This document shows, piece by piece, positions 1-44,315 of a DNA stretch of 44,315 nt (positions are counted from its first letter, which is position 1; every line of letters begins with the position of its first letter). A program made the translations under genes and the position numbers. The notes under the pieces were generated by a model. That model saw only the letters and a list, made by a program, of their open reading frames with translations, did no database searches and had not been told where the DNA came from. The DNA comes from Planctomycetota bacterium (GTDB lineage: Bacteria > Planctomycetota > PLA2 > JAEUHO01), in NCBI GenBank assembly GCA_965223505.1, contig CBDCWP010000032.1, positions 1-44,315 on the forward strand, written 5' to 3'.

Positions 1-13
1 TCGGTTCCTTGAG
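1..13. repeat. Terminal overlap (TCGGTTCCTTGAG) identical to 44303-44315; circular assembly junction
   Basis: First 13 nt equal last 13 nt; tape-measure frame continues across the join (...ALTQGTE|SVVDEGTTQ...). Confidence 0.9.
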
Positions 14-1271
14 TGAGCGCGTTCTTGCGGGCCCCGCCCGCGGCTTGGCCAACAGCCTGGAGCGCCGAGAGTCGATCCAACGGGACCTTGCCCACACGTG
101 CCATTCGCTCGATCTCGAGCGCGGCCTCCCTCGCAGCCTTCTTCCACTGACGGAACGTGCGCTCGACCTCCTTTGCCCCTTTCCCGGCGAACGCATCCTC
201 GAGCGACTTCATAGCCTTGCCGGCGCGCTCGTCCAGATCACTCTGGATCTTGTTGATCTCGTCATTGACCGTGCTCAGCGCGCCCTTGATCCCGAGACGC
301 TCGCCGACCATGTGAAGCGACGGATTCATGAACTCGTTCACGTCATGCGCGAGACCTGCGAGCTTCACCAGGCCCTCGGCGATATTCGCCAGCACCTTGA
401 CGATGCCCGCCCCCATGAGCGTGAACCCGGCCCCGAGACCATCGACAACGTCCTTCGCGGTCGCGACCGCCTTCGCAACCTCCTCGACGGCGTCCACGAC
501 CATCTCACCCATGTTGCCGCCTTCAGTCGCGGTCTCGATGAAGCTGTCCGCGATCCCCTTGATGAACGGCGCGAGCTCGACCGACACCTTCTGAATGAGC
601 GCCTCGAGGACGATCCCGGTCTCGGTCAGAGAGTTGTTAGCAGCCTCGACTTGAGCCGCGTCGAGGCGAGACAGACTCAGGCCGAGCCTCTTCATTCGCT
701 CCTCGACGCGCTCGATTTGCTCGGCACCGCCGCGTAGTGTGTTGACGAGCGCGACGCCCTCTGAATCGAAGAGCTTGAACGCGAGCCGGACACGGTCACC
801 CTGGCTCGTCACGTTCTCCATTGCGTCCGCGATGGTCTTGAACTGCTCGTCGACAGAGAGTCGGGAGAGCTTCTCCGCGTCGAGACCGAGTTCCTTGATC
901 GCACCCCGCGCCTCGCCCGTTCCCTTCGCGGCCTCCGCAACACGACGCGTCATGCGCTGCAGGCCGAGTCGCATCTGGTTGACCTGCACTCCCGTCAGCT
1001 TGCCGGCGGCCTCGAGCGCCTGCATCTTCTCGGTCGCGATACCAAGACGATCAGACCACTTCGCAGTGGCGTCGATCGACTCCATCGTGCGCTTGATCCA
1101 GATCGTCAGACCGGCCGCGCCTAGAGCCGCGGTGAACCGGTTCAGAACGAGACTGGCGCCAGGAATCGACTTCACGAACCTGTTGAGATCGCGACGCGCG
1201 CTCTTGATCTTGCCCGTGAACTTGCGCGTTCGCGCCCGCAGAGCAACGTCAAGGGTCCCGATGTTCGCCAT
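1..1271 (-). CDS. Tail tape measure protein, N-terminal part (continues at 44302)
   Basis: ATG at 1271 directly after GT stop; MANIGTLDVALRARTRKFTGKIK... Ala/Gly-rich helical protein; open to window edge; position after tail chaperones. Not in ORF track because it runs off the edge. Confidence 0.92.
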   Translation of the reverse strand, partial: MANIGTLDVALRARTRKFTGKIKSARRDLNRFVKSIPGASLVLNRFTAALGAAGLTIWIKRTMESIDATAKWSDRLGIATEKMQALEAAGKLTGVQVNQMRLGLQRMTRRVAEAAKGTGEARGAIKELGLDAEKLSRLSVDEQFKTIADAMENVTSQGDRVRLAFKLFDSEGVALVNTLRGGAEQIERVEERMKRLGLSLSRLDAAQVEAANNSLTETGIVLEALIQKVSVELAPFIKGIADSFIETATEGGNMGEMVVDAVEEVAKAVATAKDVVDGLGAGFTLMGAGIVKVLANIAEGLVKLAGLAHDVNEFMNPSLHMVGERLGIKGALSTVNDEINKIQSDLDERAGKAMKSLEDAFAGKGAKEVERTFRQWKKAAREAALEIERMARVGKVPLDRLSALQAVGQAAGGARKNALTQGT

Positions 1272-1646
1272 CTACTTGACTTCCTTCGCAACGCCCGCCT
1301 TCATCATCGTCTTGACCCACAGATTGAACTTCTCGCCAACACTCATCGGCTTCTCTTCCTTGCGTAGGCGGGCTCGCTCCGGGTCCAGCTCCGGGAAGAA
1401 GTCAGACGGCTTGAATCTCCTCGCGCTCTGTTTCAAGTACGGGTTCGAGTTGAGCATCAGGGACGCGATCAGCCCGAACCGCGTGTCCTCGCGAAGAGAA
1501 CCGGACGGCTCGAGCCTCTCGAAGCCCATCATCAACTTGAGTTCTTCGGGACTGCATCGTTTGCGCGCCTCCCGCGGAGTCGCCTTGAGCCAGTCGCGCG
1601 CAATGCGCAGAAAGGCCCTTAGTCGGGGGCGCCTTCGGATTTTTCC
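1272..1646 (-). CDS. Tail assembly chaperone GT, frameshift extension
   Basis: -1 frame relative to G, entered at GGAAAAA (1646-1640); ...LEPSGSLREDTRFGLIASLM...FKPSDFFP typical of gpT-like proteins. Confidence 0.75.
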   Translation of the reverse strand, partial: GKIRRRPRLRAFLRIARDWLKATPREARKRCSPEELKLMMGFERLEPSGSLREDTRFGLIASLMLNSNPYLKQSARRFKPSDFFPELDPERARLRKEEKPMSVGEKFNLWVKTMMKAGVAKEVK

Positions 1647-1999
1647 GCTTCGGCCTCGATCTCGGCGTCCGCATCGATCGCGTTGAGCTTCAGACCCTCG
1701 GTGAAGACCGGCATCAACTCTTCGGGGTCCTGGTTCCTCAGCGCGTCGATGTGCTCCTGATCCTCGTAGTCGAGGATCGGCTCGCCCTGCTCGTCGCACA
1801 TGATCAACGCGACCATCTGTGCCATGAATTCGGACGAGGTGATCTCCTCGGCGTCACGCTTCGCGACGAGGTCCTCGAACATGTCACGAAGCCGCAGCGG
1901 TAGCCGGCGAACCCAGACAGGGGCGCCCTTCACAGGGACGGACACCTTCTCCGTCTTTACTTCGCACGGCTGCAGGAACAGATCTCGGGTGTTGCTCAT
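1619..1999 (-). CDS. Tail assembly chaperone G
   Basis: 126 aa acidic protein between tail tube and TMP ending in slippery site (EAEKS). Confidence 0.8.
   Translation of the reverse strand: MSNTRDLFLQPCEVKTEKVSVPVKGAPVWVRRLPLRLRDMFEDLVAKRDAEEITSSEFMAQMVALIMCDEQGEPILDYEDQEHIDALRNQDPEELMPVFTEGLKLNAIDADAEIEAEAEKSEGAPD
1640..1646 (-). promoter_or_regulatory. Programmed -1 frameshift slippery sequence GGAAAAA
   Basis: GCG GAA AAA TCC near end of G; -1 frame GGA AAA ATC open to 1272; conserved lambda G/GT arrangement. Confidence 0.7.
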
Positions 2000-2029
2000 T
2001 TCTGACCCTTCTCAGGAAAGAGGCGCGGC

Positions 2030-2455
2030 CTACGAGCCGGCCGTAAACGTGAGGATGCCGGACCACTGCACCTGGAACGAACCGGTCTTCTTGCCCTTGT
2101 GAGGGACGTTCTGCGACTGCGTGTGACAGATGCCAGTCCCCGTCACCGACGCGGGGTTCGTGTCGTTCGGGTGCGTCTTGTACGTGACCGTCACAGCCTG
2201 CTTCGTCCCGAGCGGGGGCAGCACGCTCGGGTTCAGGTTGTGCTCGAACGTCATGTTGCCGCCGTTCTCGATCACGTCGGCAATGAACTCGATTCCACCG
2301 CGTTCGTTCGAGGCGTTCGGAAGCGTCGAGCCGTGATGCGACGACTCGTGCAGGTCGACGGTCGGGCCGTCCCACGAGAAGTCCGTGATCTCGAAAGTCT
2401 CACCGCTCGCGAAGACGAGCGTCAGGCCAGTGCCTACGTCAGTTCCACCAGGCAT
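2030..2455 (-). CDS. Major tail (tube) protein
   Basis: 141 aa, beta-rich, G-x-G-x-T-L N-terminus, EFI..ENGGNMTF and terminal GSFQVQWSG; RBS AAGGAGG; synteny. Confidence 0.75.
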   Translation of the reverse strand: MPGGTDVGTGLTLVFASGETFEITDFSWDGPTVDLHESSHHGSTLPNASNERGGIEFIADVIENGGNMTFEHNLNPSVLPPLGTKQAVTVTYKTHPNDTNPASVTGTGICHTQSQNVPHKGKKTGSFQVQWSGILTFTAGS

Positions 2456-2470
2456 GTTGCCTCCTTCTCG

Positions 2471-2887
2471 CTACGGCCTCTGATGCCAGACCGTGAACGA
2501 CCAAATGAACTTGAATTCCTTCTTGTCCGTGCCGTCGTCCGGTTCATCCGGAGGCGCCGGCAGCGGTTCGATGTCGGTGATGGCGCACTTCTTCAGCGTG
2601 CCGATGTCGCCCTGGTGCCCGTGAAGTCGAACGCGAAGCGCGTTCTTCAGGGCGCGACGTCGCGCGTTCGTGGGAGACCAGCCCGTGATCTGGAATTGCG
2701 TGTGCGCAAGTGCCGACGCGCCTCCGTGGTGCGTGTCGAACGGATCCGTGATGATCTCGTACTTGCAGTAGTCGCCGGATGCGGAGCTCGGGACCTGGTC
2801 GGGGTAGAGACTCGTCCCCAGGATCCCGGCGACCGTCGCGTCCGCGAGGATGAACGTGCGCAGCTCGCCTTCGATGTCGTAGCTCAT
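2471..2887 (-). CDS. Tail completion/terminator protein (DUF3168-like)
   Basis: IEGELRTFILADATVAGILGTSLYPDQVP...FQITGWS pattern; synteny. Confidence 0.75.
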   Translation of the reverse strand: MSYDIEGELRTFILADATVAGILGTSLYPDQVPSSASGDYCKYEIITDPFDTHHGGASALAHTQFQITGWSPTNARRRALKNALRVRLHGHQGDIGTLKKCAITDIEPLPAPPDEPDDGTDKKEFKFIWSFTVWHQRP

Positions 2888-3339
2888 GCCGCCCGCACCT
2901 CCGACAAGATGAGGCGCCACGTGCGGACGCGCATGATCCGAATGACGCGCCCCTTCATCGACTCGAGTGGGTTGCGGAGGTACGGCCGCGCCTTCACCTT
3001 CTTCGTCCCGAGCTCGATGTGCGCCGGCGAGTACCAGCGGCTCTTCGGCGGGATTCCCATCTCGGCACGCGTCGGCGTGACAACCCGGACGCCGAAGGAC
3101 CCACGGCGAGCCTTCGCAGCTCGAAGCTTCAGCCCGCGCGAGATCTTCAGCGCCGTCTCGGTGGCGTTCGCCGGATTCGTGATCGAAGCCGCGTAGCGCT
3201 TCGCCGCCTGGTGCACGGGCTTGAACGCTGCCCGCATCGCTTTCCTGACGATCTTGCGCTGCACCTTGGTCTCGAGACGCTTCAGCTTCTTCTGGAGCGC
3301 CTGGTCTCCCAGAACGGAGATGTCGATGAAGTTCGCCAC
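2884..3339 (-). CDS. HK97 gp10-like tail/neck component
   Basis: LQKKLKRL..KVQRKIVRKAMRAA and HIELGTKKVKARPYLR motif. Confidence 0.85.
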   Translation of the reverse strand: MANFIDISVLGDQALQKKLKRLETKVQRKIVRKAMRAAFKPVHQAAKRYAASITNPANATETALKISRGLKLRAAKARRGSFGVRVVTPTRAEMGIPPKSRWYSPAHIELGTKKVKARPYLRNPLESMKGRVIRIMRVRTWRLILSEVRAA

Positions 3340-21165: not shown

Positions 21166-21514
21166 GCCGCCCTCCGTGTGTCGCCCACATCGGCTACATT
21201 TGTCGGCCTAGCGCACGTTTCAAACGAGACAGACTGGACCGCGCCGTGGTGACACCCACGACGCGGCCCCAAGAACGGAGCCCCGTGCGCAGAAACCCCG
21301 CCCCTGAGTTCCAGTCTGGAAAGATCTCCCCGCAGTTCTTCGAGCGCCGCCTCGCCCACCACATGCGGATGGTGATCAAGCTGCTTCGTCGCGCAGATCG
21401 AGAAGGCTGGAATCTGCATCTCGACAGGGGGAGATGAGAGGTCGCAGCGGCGCCCGTTCGTCGCCCGGTTGGGTAGGCCGCGGACGTTCCGCGGTACCCG
21501 ACGGCAAACAGGTT

Positions 21515-21586
21515 CCAAGCCGGCGGGATTCGAACCCGCAACAGCAGGGGTTCCAGCCCTGCATGCCGCCGTTGCATCTCGGCCTG
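21515..21586 (-). tRNA. Atypical tRNA-like gene, anticodon GGA, short variable loop
   Basis: CAGGCCG-AG-ATGC/GCAT D arm-CAGGG CTGGAAC CCCTG-CTGTT-GCGGG TTCGAAT CCCGC-CGGCTTG-G. Confidence 0.75.
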
Positions 21587-21973
21587 GAGCACGCTGAGCG
21601 CTCAAGCGCCCTGGCTTTCGCCGCGCCGCGTGTCCGTCCACGCCGCGCCGCTGCGTATCGAAGGAAGCCGCCCGCGATCAACTGACCTGTGCGGGCTCTC
21701 CGCGGATTGCGGAGCACGGGGCGGCTCGACGTGGGCTCGGGGAATGTTCCCCAGAATTCCCGAGAAACGATGTCAGGTCGAATCGGCCTAGTTCGTACTC
21801 ACGGTGGGAATACGAAGTGTGTGGACGAGAAGGTGCAACCGCTGAGGGAGCGGGCGCAGGGACCGAACGGGTAGCTTCCCGGGCATCTCCGTCTCTGTGC
21901 TCGTCCCCAGCCTTCATGGGGAGGTGACCGTGGAAGGTCTCGACACTGACGTCTCGCTGGTCGACTGAGGGAC

Positions 21974-29177: not shown

Positions 29178-29250
29178 GGCGGCGTGGCCGAATGGAAAGG
29201 TGCCTAGACTTGCAATCTTGGATTCGGGGGTTCGATTCCCCCCGCCGCCT
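29178..29250 (+). tRNA. Atypical tRNA: Cys-like body, anticodon loop CTTGCAA (UGC)
   Basis: GGCGGCG/CGCCGCC acceptor, U73, GCCGAATGGAAAGGT D arm, CCTAGA/TCTTGG stem, GGGGG TTCGATT CCCCC T arm; no encoded CCA. Confidence 0.85.
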
Positions 29251-42674: not shown

Positions 42675-42840
42675 GCTTCCACCAGTCCGCCGGATCCGGG
42701 TCCTTGTCGCCCTCCGGGCATCGAAGAACGGTTCGCCCGAGCTTCTTGCTCTCCCACTCGATGATGGCCCAGCAGCGCCCTTTGCTGTCCCACGTCGGGA
42801 TCACGGTGCCGCTGATCTTGCCCGCCTTGTCGCTAGGCAT
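42667..42840 (-). CDS. Small hypothetical protein
   Basis: 57 aa, GGAGG RBS, overlaps neighbours. Confidence 0.5.
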   Translation of the reverse strand: MPSDKAGKISGTVIPTWDSKGRCWAIIEWESKKLGRTVLRCPEGDKDPDPADWWKRA

Positions 42841-43399
42841 CCGGCACCTCCTCGAGGTCGAACTGCGCACCGAACGGAGCCCAGATCCGGGAGCGCTCGT
42901 AGCTGTCCATCACGACACGGCGGTAGTAGTGGTAGTTCGCCGTTGCCGCGCCGGCCGGCGCCGACGAGAACGTGATCGTGCGTGCGTCCGTGTCCACCGA
43001 GGCGTGGTTCACTGGCGCCCCCGCGTCGAACACCTGCAGGTTCGCGTCGTCGATCGGGTAGTCGCCTCCGTACTTGCCCGTCTTCGGCAGCTCGTACACC
43101 GCGCCGGCAACCTGCGTCAGCGTGACCAGCCCTCCGGACGCGAAGCGTTCGAAGTCGTGGATGTCCTTCCACAGGAACGAGTCCACGCCTTCGATCGTGT
43201 CTTCGAAGAAGCCCTCCAGCGAAAGCCTGTCTGCGTCCGTCTCCAGGAGCGCTTGGAGCCCCGGGTAGCGTCGAAGAAGTCGAGAGAACGTGGCTGCGCG
43301 CTGGTGACCGCCGCCCGAGAAGCGCTGCACGACCTTCGGGCGCATCAAGATCACCCGGTAGCCGCGGCGGATCGGGACGTCGAGCACCGCAAGCGCCAT
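42833..43399 (-). CDS. Distal tail protein (DUF2460-like)
   Basis: Follows TMP; GGGHQR...LEGFF...SFLWKD...ITFSSAPAGA...YYRRV. Confidence 0.7.
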   Translation of the reverse strand: MALAVLDVPIRRGYRVILMRPKVVQRFSGGGHQRAATFSRLLRRYPGLQALLETDADRLSLEGFFEDTIEGVDSFLWKDIHDFERFASGGLVTLTQVAGAVYELPKTGKYGGDYPIDDANLQVFDAGAPVNHASVDTDARTITFSSAPAGAATANYHYYRRVVMDSYERSRIWAPFGAQFDLEEVPDA

Positions 43400-44302
43400 C
43401 AAAGGCCCTTCTGGTTGCGGATCATGCGACCGACCGTCGGATCCGTTGCAACCGTGCGACGAACCATCTCGGCGAAGTCAGACTGGCTGGTGAGCGCGTC
43501 GGATTGGCGCGCGTCAACCGAGAGCGTGAGCTGAACGGGCGACGTACCGCCGCCCGGCTTCGCCGGTCACCCGCCCGGACCGCACGCGCCGAACGAGGGA
43601 ATGTCGAGCGGGGGCAGGTCCGGGCTGCCCGTAGCGAAGTCGTTCGGCCCGAAGATCGGGCCGCTGAACCCGCCCCCGCCTCCGCCACCCCCAAAGGCGC
43701 TGATCGCAGTACCCACGATTCCGCCGACACCGCCTCCGCCACGGCCACCGCCGAAGATCGACGCCATCAGGTTCGTGATCCCGCTCGACACGATCTGGTT
43801 GATCAGGGAACGGAGAAGCGCGTCCATCGCCTGCTTCGCGATATCCGACGCGTTCTCGAATCCACTCGAGATTCCGTCGACGATGATGTCGCTCAGGCCG
43901 CCCCCGAGCGGAACCTCGATGTTCGAGACGAACTGCTTGGCCGTCTCTGGAGCCGTTTCTGCGATCGCGCGGCCCGTTACGGACTGAAGCCGGCCGATCA
44001 ACGCGTTCGCTCTCGCCGAGTCGATGCCCAGGTCAGCCGCACGCCTCCGAAGGTCCTCCATCTCGTGCTGAATCGCCAGCTGCCGGCGCATCTCGTCCGA
44101 CGTCGCGGTCTCAAGCGCAATGCGCCGCTCGATACTGCGGATGAAGTCCTCCTGCGCACGTGCCTGATCGGCGAGCTGTCGTGCGATGTCCTCGAGCTCT
44201 TGTCGCCGGCGCTTGTCGAGCGCAAGCTGCCTCTCTGTGACCTCGACGCCCTGCCTGAGGCCCGTAAGGACTCGCTGGGTGGTCCCCTCATCCACCACGG
44301 AC
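43399..44302 (-). CDS. Tape measure protein, C-terminal part, with in-frame TGA at 43567-43569
   Basis: In frame with 1271..1; after the TGA the same frame stays open 55 codons to a TGATG overlap with the next gene. Confidence 0.85.
43536..43566 (-). promoter_or_regulatory. Candidate bacterial SECIS hairpin
   Basis: UGA-CCGGCGAAGC-CGGGCGGCG-GUA-CGUCGCCCG; GGU at +19..+21. Confidence 0.55.
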
Positions 44303-44315
44303 TCGGTTCCTTGAG

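Follow-up and report, generated by a model that had tools for sequence, protein, structure and literature searches.

The tape measure protein (TMP) gene of a phage contig binned with a Planctomycetota bacterium (assembly GCA_965223505.1, contig CBDCWP010000032.1) is interrupted, just ahead of its conserved C-terminal part, by an in-frame UGA codon at which selenocysteine (Sec) is probably inserted. The stretch analyzed here, referred to below as the window, is one whole contig (G000:C32, 44,315 bp) of genome G000, which comprises 5.15 Mb in 44 contigs and is 92% complete. The UGA is conserved at the same column in relatives of the protein, and the extension beyond it is in frame and under selection, as would be expected of a bacterial-type selenoprotein gene. 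We propose from the comparisons of sequence given below that SelB, guided by a selenocysteine insertion sequence (SECIS) element, would insert Sec at this codon and produce a virion protein with a Cys-x4-Sec motif. A first-pass annotation of the window had put forward the same idea of a CxxxxU selenoprotein in the virion, and the conservation of the TGA, the Sec machinery of the host, and the match of the downstream hairpin to host elements lend support to it. The features of the locus, all on the minus strand, are as follows.

1..1271, minus strand (open reading frame (ORF) 3..1271, 423 aa): N-terminal part of the TMP gene, with its ATG at 1271 and a match to phrog_9483 'tail length tape measure protein' at E 8e-74
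43570..44315, minus strand: C-terminal part of the TMP gene up to the UGA, with a helical region, a Gly-rich stretch, the ending ...SFGACGPGG, and weak matches to TMP PHROGs
43582..43584, minus strand: partner Cys codon TGC, five residues before the UGA by translation and invariant in the alignment of the closest homologs
43567..43569, minus strand: in-frame UGA, the proposed Sec codon, present in contigs of public runs X1, X2, and X3, with TGA at the same column in the related loci L016 and L023
43402..43566, minus strand: in-frame extension of 55 codons, with homology to the final portion of canonical TMP C-termini (alignment with the ends of, among others, P0004 and P0013)
43399..43401, minus strand: TGA terminator of the long form, whose A is the first base of the next gene's ATG (TGATG)
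42833..43399, minus strand: next tail gene, distal-tail-like (DUF2460 at 22.8 bits, below the cut-off of 30.4; phrog_2913 at E 1.3e-9)

The first 13 bases of the contig are identical to its last 13, and the TMP gene spans the circular junction of the contig, with this terminal overlap joining the N-terminal part in frame to position 44313. By its sequence family and by its place in the tail gene order, the gene encodes a phage tail TMP. The N-terminal part is matched by 115 phage records as a TMP, and the gene located 3' of the TMP gene in two related loci, L020 and L023, resembles the distal-tail-like gene of the window. The C-terminal part reads ...PDLPPLDIPSFGA-C-G-P-G-G, followed by the TGA (43569..43567) and then in frame by PAKPGGGTSPVQLTLSVDARQSDALTSQSDFAEMVRRTVATDPTVGRMIRNQKGL (55 codons), which begins P-A-K-P-G-G-G-T-S-P-V-Q-L-T-L-S-V-D directly after the UGA. 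The protein would be 668 aa long if translation ended at the UGA, versus 724 aa with read-through. A re-reading of the sequence bore out the first-pass description of this locus in all its parts, namely the TGA after C-G-P-G-G, the 55 further open codons, the TGATG overlap, and the two lengths. The same annotation had reported no start codon at the beginning of the extension, and no in-frame ATG, GTG, or TTG is indeed present in the extension of the window before codon 33.

When the read-through C-terminal part (P0001) was used as the query of an exhaustive HMMER search, 112 homologs were retrieved, and the closest four, P0002 (53% identity), P0003, P0010, and P0012, all end in C-G-P-G-G at the query column preceding the TGA. 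DNA was examined for three lineages, all of the Cx4 class: the window, a contig in a genome of the host's own family (G019:C35, locus L016), and two near-identical metagenome contigs representing one lineage (L023 and L024). The L016 locus, which is also found as JAJDEN010000005.1 in a Planctomycetota metagenome-assembled genome, reads ...GGDLG-C-G-P-G-G-TGA-GVPAFAKGGVVTRPTLALVGEAGPEAIIPL..., has 34% identity to the query, and would yield 607 aa if read through. The metagenome contigs read GGGCAGGT-TGA-GMAEGGVALRPTRRLMGEAGPEAVIPL..., with the Cys in the context GGG-C-A-G-G-T-TGA, and their extension ends at a TAG just ahead of a distal-tail-like gene. In three of three lineages with DNA (~30-34% identity), a Cys precedes the stop by five residues, the stop itself is a TGA, and the extension keeps the reading frame. 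The extensions of L016 and L023 carry the canonical TMP C-terminal motif of relatives that have no interruption (P0004, P0013, L017, and L020). The first-pass view of the extension as a typical TMP C-terminus is upheld by this homology to the canonical ends of uninterrupted relatives. Its expectation that homologs would have either TGA or Cys at the UGA column held for TGA in all three lineages and failed for Cys, with no homolog found to carry Cys in place of Sec.

A scan of genome contigs returned the G019 locus only. No relative was found by scanning viral contigs with P0001 or with alignment A2, and a viral-contig scan with alignment A4 recovered only two TMPs, both lacking the Cys-stop ending. 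A first metagenome scan for relatives gave no match, and neither did tblastn of the TMP C-terminal part against 50,697 phage records. The TMP family was found in 4 of 40 genomes of the host class, a set identical to the 40 genomes of the order, and in 3 of 401 sampled genomes of the phylum, all from the same order; these 401 genomes, which are a sample and not evidence of absence, contained no further Cys-stop TMP. At the G019 locus (L016/L019, i.e., G019:C35 and JAJDEN010000005.1), the read-through TMP is followed by an ORF of unknown function and a tyrosine-integrase-like ORF, not by distal-tail genes, and the prophage there may be truncated or rearranged.

Logan contigs from four public runs, all belonging to one study that possibly includes the source sample, were placed on positions 43000-44300 of the window. 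The contigs of X1 and X2 cover the TGA site with zero differences. The TGA is also kept in the contigs of a diverged strain (X2 record 7 and X3 record 10), in which the Cys codon has changed from TGC to TGT and the Pro codon from CCG to CCC, both changes being synonymous. Upstream of the TGA, the changed codons in the variant-strain contigs are synonymous without exception (15/15), and of the 11 changed codons of the extension, 6 are synonymous and 5 encode conservative replacements (T>S, L>I, S>A, Q>K, and S>P), with no change at any second codon position. Purifying selection acts on one and the same reading frame before and after the TGA. The possibility that reads would show TGC, TGT, or TGG at this place had been raised by the first-pass annotation; the TGA stands in the public-run contigs, the diverged strain included. 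In one variant-strain contig, 134 other letters stand in place of the 155 nt at window positions 43587-43741, in the Gly-rich stretch, with only point changes in the flanks, and the Gly-rich linker of the TMP seems to be hypervariable.

The most unusual property of this family is the coupling of a lone Cys to the stop. The TGC at 43582..43584 encodes the sole Cys among the 304 C-terminal TMP residues read. As deposited in the database, 39 of the 112 homologs stop 0 (8 proteins), 2 (12 proteins), or 4 (19 proteins) residues after a Cys, and not one stops 1, 3, or 5 residues after it. The coupled Cys is the only Cys of the protein in 39/39 cases (proteins of 349-732 aa), and the 112 homologs together contain 48 Cys in 74,576 residues. 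Among full-length relatives of the extension, 116 of 118 are without any Cys, and a Cys-stop ending was found in none of 119 more distant TMPs. Given the sole-Cys coupling in 39/39 proteins and the Cys-less full-length relatives, the Cys and the stop therefore occur together or not at all. If the stops of the database proteins are TGA, their ends would be CU, CxxU, and CxxxxU motifs. The three spacing classes and the Cys-less relatives are interleaved on a quick, weakly supported tree, where P0041 (C+0) and P0065 (C+2) are sisters at 100 and P0035 (C+4) falls inside P0004/P0016 at 95. Because of this interleaving, the even spacing from Cys to stop may reflect constraint rather than shared descent. 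A distant TMP from IMG/VR (L021, IMGVR_UViG_3300020577_002220, ORF 200..3160) has an internal C-G-V-C just before its Gly-rich stretch and no stop, and this C-G-V-C is the sole Cys-Cys counterpart seen.

The first-pass proposal called for a host with selA, selB, selC, and selD, and the genome contains selA, selB, and selD together with a tRNA-Sec, as listed here.

selB, host genome G000: 335.7 bits (cut-off 242.25)
selA, host genome G000: 507.2 bits (cut-off 267.9)
selD, host genome G000, C8:38315-39232: 338.1 bits (cut-off 125), with an in-frame TGA of its own
tRNA-Sec(tca), host genome G000, contig C43: found with ARAGORN

Of the 40 genomes of the host class within the Planctomycetota, 39 exceed the cut-off for selB and 37 that for selA, G019 included. 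The host genome contains at least 11 candidate selenoprotein genes, an unusually rich set of predicted Sec-redoxins. All 11 match Pfam domains across the TGA when U is read as C (AhpC-TSA/Redoxin in 4, Thioredoxin_7 in 5, two of them just under the cut-off, T4_deiodinase-like in 1, and CMD/AhpD-like in 1). They sit on contigs C5, C7, C10, C11, C24, C30 (two), C33, C34, C39, and C44 (loci L042-L052) and are mostly of the UxxC type. The occurrence of in-frame TGAs in 11 redox-domain genes indicates that this host uses Sec widely. The assignment of the phage to this host is backed by the integrated relative in G019.

The candidate SECIS element of the TMP gene lies shortly after the UGA and overlaps a second, smaller hairpin.

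43536..43556, minus strand (loop 43545-43547): SECIS-like hairpin with a 9-bp stem and triloop GUA, identified by folding and by a pattern scan
43554..43566, minus strand: competing hairpin CCGGC-GAA-GCCGG directly after the UGA, present in the minimum free energy structure of a 70-nt fold and sharing 3 nt with the 5' arm of the larger stem

With the U of the UGA counted as 0, the stem of the larger hairpin occupies positions 13-21 and 25-33 around the loop G22 U23 A24, and the competing hairpin occupies positions 3-15. The larger hairpin starts ~10-11 nt after the UGA, with GGU at +19..+21 after it. These features of the first-pass annotation (the 9-bp hairpin, the GGU at +19..+21, the competing CCGGC-GAA-GCCGG hairpin, and the lack of a bulged U) were all reproduced. 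In fdhF-style numbering, in which the U of the UGA is 1, the loop bases are G23 and U24, and the annotation's statement that the loop offset is that of the E. coli fdhF SECIS agrees with a review that places G and U at positions 23 and 24 (PMC8659212). According to the same review, the 17-nt upper stem-loop is located 11 nt from the UGA, and its conserved features are G23, U24, and the bulged U17 (PMC8659212). When the UGA is in the A site, the competing hairpin would lie inside the mRNA channel of the ribosome. The variant strain has a substitution at 43552 within the larger hairpin that turns a C-G pair into U-G.

To compare this hairpin to those of the host, the 65 nt after each of the 11 host UGAs were folded, yielding an element with a ~7-bp stem and a loop of GUC, GGU, GUU, GGUC, or GUCG that starts at +21..+30 after the U. 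Among stems of at least 6 bp, the loop-start dinucleotides are GG (6), GU (6), and CG (1), and the other 13 dinucleotides do not occur. A pattern describing these elements (a stem of at least 7 bp with G-U allowed, a loop of 3-5 nt starting with GU or GGU, and a loop start at +18..+34) follows 7 of the 11 host selenoprotein UGAs versus 699 of all 106,400 TGAs in the genome (0.66%). With a stem of at least 9 bp, it follows 122 of the 106,400 TGAs genome-wide and 1 of the 1,235 in the window, which is the TMP site. The hairpins found after the UGA in the three TMP lineages are as follows.

Window TMP: 9-bp stem, loop GUA, loop start +22
L023 TMP: 7-bp stem, loop GUG, loop start +21
L016 TMP: 6-bp stem (8 bp with one bulged G), loop GUCA / GGUC, loop start +33 / +32

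The TMP hairpin resembles the host's own SECIS elements in its stem, its loop letters, and its distance from the UGA. As a control, the amino acids were held fixed and synonymous codons were redrawn from the codon usage of the TMP in 20,000 trials, and a hairpin at least as good as that of the window was obtained in 158 of them (0.8%, p 0.008). Two non-Sec relatives sharing the protein motif GG-V-x-x-RP, L017 and L020, were searched at this place for a hairpin with a GU loop and a stem of 5 bp or more, and neither has one (0/2); the notion that the hairpin is purely a by-product of this motif was dropped on that ground. A search of Rfam at E <= 10 gave no matching family, only chance miRNA and riboswitch rows.

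Taken together as a mechanism, the UGA at 43567-43569 would be a conserved, programmed recoding site, and the hairpin ~10-11 nt downstream, with its 9-bp stem and GUA loop, would recruit host SelB and Sec-tRNA(Sec). Insertion of Sec would then yield a 724-aa TMP with Cys-Gly-Pro-Gly-Gly-Sec just before the conserved C-terminal part, and ribosomes that terminate at the UGA would release a 668-aa form without the conserved C-terminal (tail-tip) part, so that two forms of the TMP (668 and 724 aa) are possible. In the virion, the Cys and Sec could pair as a redox-active selenenylsulfide, and such a bond might serve as a redox latch, one that an envelope with abundant Sec-redoxins would open. With Sec in a virion TMP, tail assembly or infectivity would in turn depend on the selenium supply and SelB of the host.

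Genes of the E. coli fdhF type offer a close parallel, having an in-frame UGA, a hairpin within the coding sequence ~11 nt after it, G23/U24 in the apical loop, and a host with selA/B/C/D. The TMP hairpin differs from that of fdhF in its GUA triloop and in lacking the bulged U17, and the fdhF type encodes an oxidoreductase rather than a phage structural protein. Unlike the fdhF-type selenoproteins, the TMP has no Cys-homolog found, and its Sec is proposed from sequence. The thioredoxin-fold candidates of the host (UxxC redoxins, deiodinase-like, and AhpD-like proteins) likewise have a ~7-bp hairpin with GUC, GGU, GUU, or GGUC at +21..+30 and a Sec near a Cys. In the host candidates, however, the Sec is N-terminal of the Cys (UxxC) and within a folded domain, whereas in the TMP the Cys comes first (Cx4U), at the end of a Gly-rich linker; the TMP relatives would be CxxU or CU, if their stops are TGA, in contrast to the UxxC of the host proteins. 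Redox motifs such as CxxU and GCUG are known from SelW-type proteins and thioredoxin reductase, where Cys and Sec stand 1, 3, or 5 positions apart, as the TMP ends imply. The TMP has neither a thioredoxin fold nor a known catalytic role by comparison with these, and its Cx4U spacing is unusual.

Virus genes that rely on host Sec machinery have precedents in the glutathione peroxidase selenoproteins of molluscum contagiosum and fowlpox, and a 2021 review of recoding, in its available portions, names only these poxvirus enzymes (PMC8310308). The poxvirus proteins are captured cellular enzymes with eukaryotic SECIS elements, whereas the TMP is structural, belongs to a phage, would use a SECIS of the bacterial type, and has no cellular selenoprotein homolog. 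As the first-pass annotation had stated for structural proteins, no described phage selenoprotein was found in the full-text literature searched, a body of work in which most subscription journals were outside coverage, and matches for 'viral selenoprotein' concerned animal viruses only. Recoding through which a minor fraction of a virion or assembly protein gains a C-terminal extension is familiar from Qbeta A1 read-through and the G/GT tail-chaperone frameshift. In those cases the inserted residue is unimportant or the frame shifts, whereas the TMP keeps its frame and has its UGA strictly coupled to a partner Cys.

We favor Sec insertion because the sole Cys is tied to the stop at offsets of 1, 3, and 5, like the CU, CxxU, and Cx4U redox motifs, because the hairpin matches the host SECIS type in stem, loop letters, and distance, and because the lineage in which the family occurs has a rich selenoproteome and carries the Sec machinery almost universally. 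Several results nevertheless weigh against it. No homolog with Cys in place of Sec was found among 118 full-length extension relatives (0/118 with a Cys within the 60 residues before the GE.GPE motif) or among the remaining 73 HMMER homologs (0/73 with a Cys at that place). The DNA covers 3 of roughly 40 lineages, all of the x4 class, and the CU and CxxU classes are known from protein ends alone. Regarding the hairpin, folding energy does not set the region apart from dinucleotide shuffles (z -0.24) and was dropped as evidence, and the pattern and its thresholds were fixed after the host and TMP hairpins had been seen. The hairpin that the first-pass annotation expected at homologs is present in form (7 bp with GUG in L023, 6 bp with GUCA in L016), yet the resampling control gave one at least as good in 2,263 of 20,000 trials for L016 (11%, p 0.11) and in 1,087 of 20,000 for L023 (5.4%, p 0.054). 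The Gly/Pro-rich protein motif itself favors G/C stems, and the by-product explanation is only weakened because at the same place the non-Sec relative L017 carries a 7-bp G/C stem closing a loop of 9 nt. As for the host, its 11 candidates were hand-picked by redox-like context from 116 in-frame TGAs in a GC3-based scan of G000, and the phage was linked to it by binning (GC 64.5% for the phage versus about 68%).

With frameshifting, reinitiation, hopping, and reassignment ruled out as set out below, Sec insertion and read-through by a standard tRNA remain. The latter is the main rival: the UGA would be decoded at some frequency, in a programmed but Sec-independent manner and possibly with stimulation from the hairpin, by a near-cognate tRNA (Trp, Cys, or Arg), which would produce a fixed ratio of the 668-aa and 724-aa forms. 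An in-frame UGA followed by a conserved in-frame extension in 3/3 lineages would be expected from such read-through too, the nucleotide directly after the UGA is C or G in the lineages, and the lack of any Cys-for-Sec homolog (0/118, 0/73) and the moderate, post hoc significance of the hairpin both speak for it. It leaves unexplained, however, why a sole Cys stands 0, 2, or 4 residues before the stop in 39/39 proteins and is absent from TMPs without the stop, why the loop has G-U where the host's own SECIS elements have theirs, and why the family was found only in a class with near-universal selB. We consider read-through of this kind unlikely, albeit the most credible of the alternatives.

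Genuine termination, in which the TMP ends at ...CGPGG and the 55 codons are an untranslated relic or are made by reinitiation or hopping, is much less probable still. Gene callers do end the 39 database proteins at this point, L023 has an ATG two codons after its TGA, and 55 open codons would not be rare in DNA of 65% GC. Against this, the extension is homologous to canonical TMP C-termini and in frame in 3/3 lineages that are ~30-34% identical, and the variant-strain substitutions are synonymous or conservative in the extension frame. In the window there is no in-frame start before codon 33, and in G019 there is none before a GTG at codon 10; with no starts in common among the lineages, termination-reinitiation was ruled out as a general route. 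Hopping of the T4 gene 60 kind was ruled out likewise, since the codons before the UGA differ (GGG, GGG, and ACU) and no common pair of take-off and landing sites exists, and +1 or -1 frameshifting was ruled out by the extension being in frame 0.

Reassignment of TGA to a standard amino acid throughout, whether by a genetic code like 4/25 or by late-gene recoding with a suppressor tRNA, appears highly improbable. Recoded phages exist. In this phage, however, TGA serves as a stop too, since the long form of the same gene terminates at the TGA at 43399..43401, 56 codons later and overlapping the next ATG. The window encodes no suppressor tRNA, its only tRNAs being Ser(GGA) at 21514-21587 on the minus strand and Ala(UGC) at 29178-29250 on the plus strand, table 11 leaves the selB and selA frames of the host open and interrupts selD with one TGA only, and the GC content is 64-68%. 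Finally, an artefact of sequencing or assembly, or a recent nonsense mutation in a dead prophage gene, had been suggested by the first-pass view of the assembly as error-prone and by the low depth of the public contigs (2-5), and is excluded for practical purposes because several runs yield contigs with the same TGA, a diverged strain keeps it beside synonymous neighboring changes, TGA stands at the same column in two other lineages, and no indels were reported in the region.

Directly upstream of the TMP start, two ORFs, 1272..1799 and 1619..1999, both on the minus strand, overlap in different frames. This pair looks like a G/GT tail assembly chaperone pair produced by a -1 frameshift.

The mechanism proposed here is a known bacterial one, and what would be new is its use by a phage, in a structural protein, and in about one third of the sampled TMP clusters. 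We lean, somewhat less firmly than for the window itself, toward the view that a large and diverse TMP family (39 of 112 clusters at 50% identity) consists of selenoproteins with a Cys-Sec pair before a conserved tail-tip C-terminus, in which case standard gene calling would truncate about a third of this family. It is probably the first phage structural selenoprotein family. If so, the use of Sec would be extended to bacteriophage virions, with these TMPs as the first structural virion selenoproteins, and the Cys-Sec pair would be a chemical feature in the least understood part of the TMP. The TMP site would also lend itself readily to testing how a non-model SelB recognizes a SECIS. The SelB, tRNA-Sec, and selenium supply of the host would be needed for tail assembly or DNA delivery, thereby linking phage infectivity to a trace element and to the host recoding machinery.

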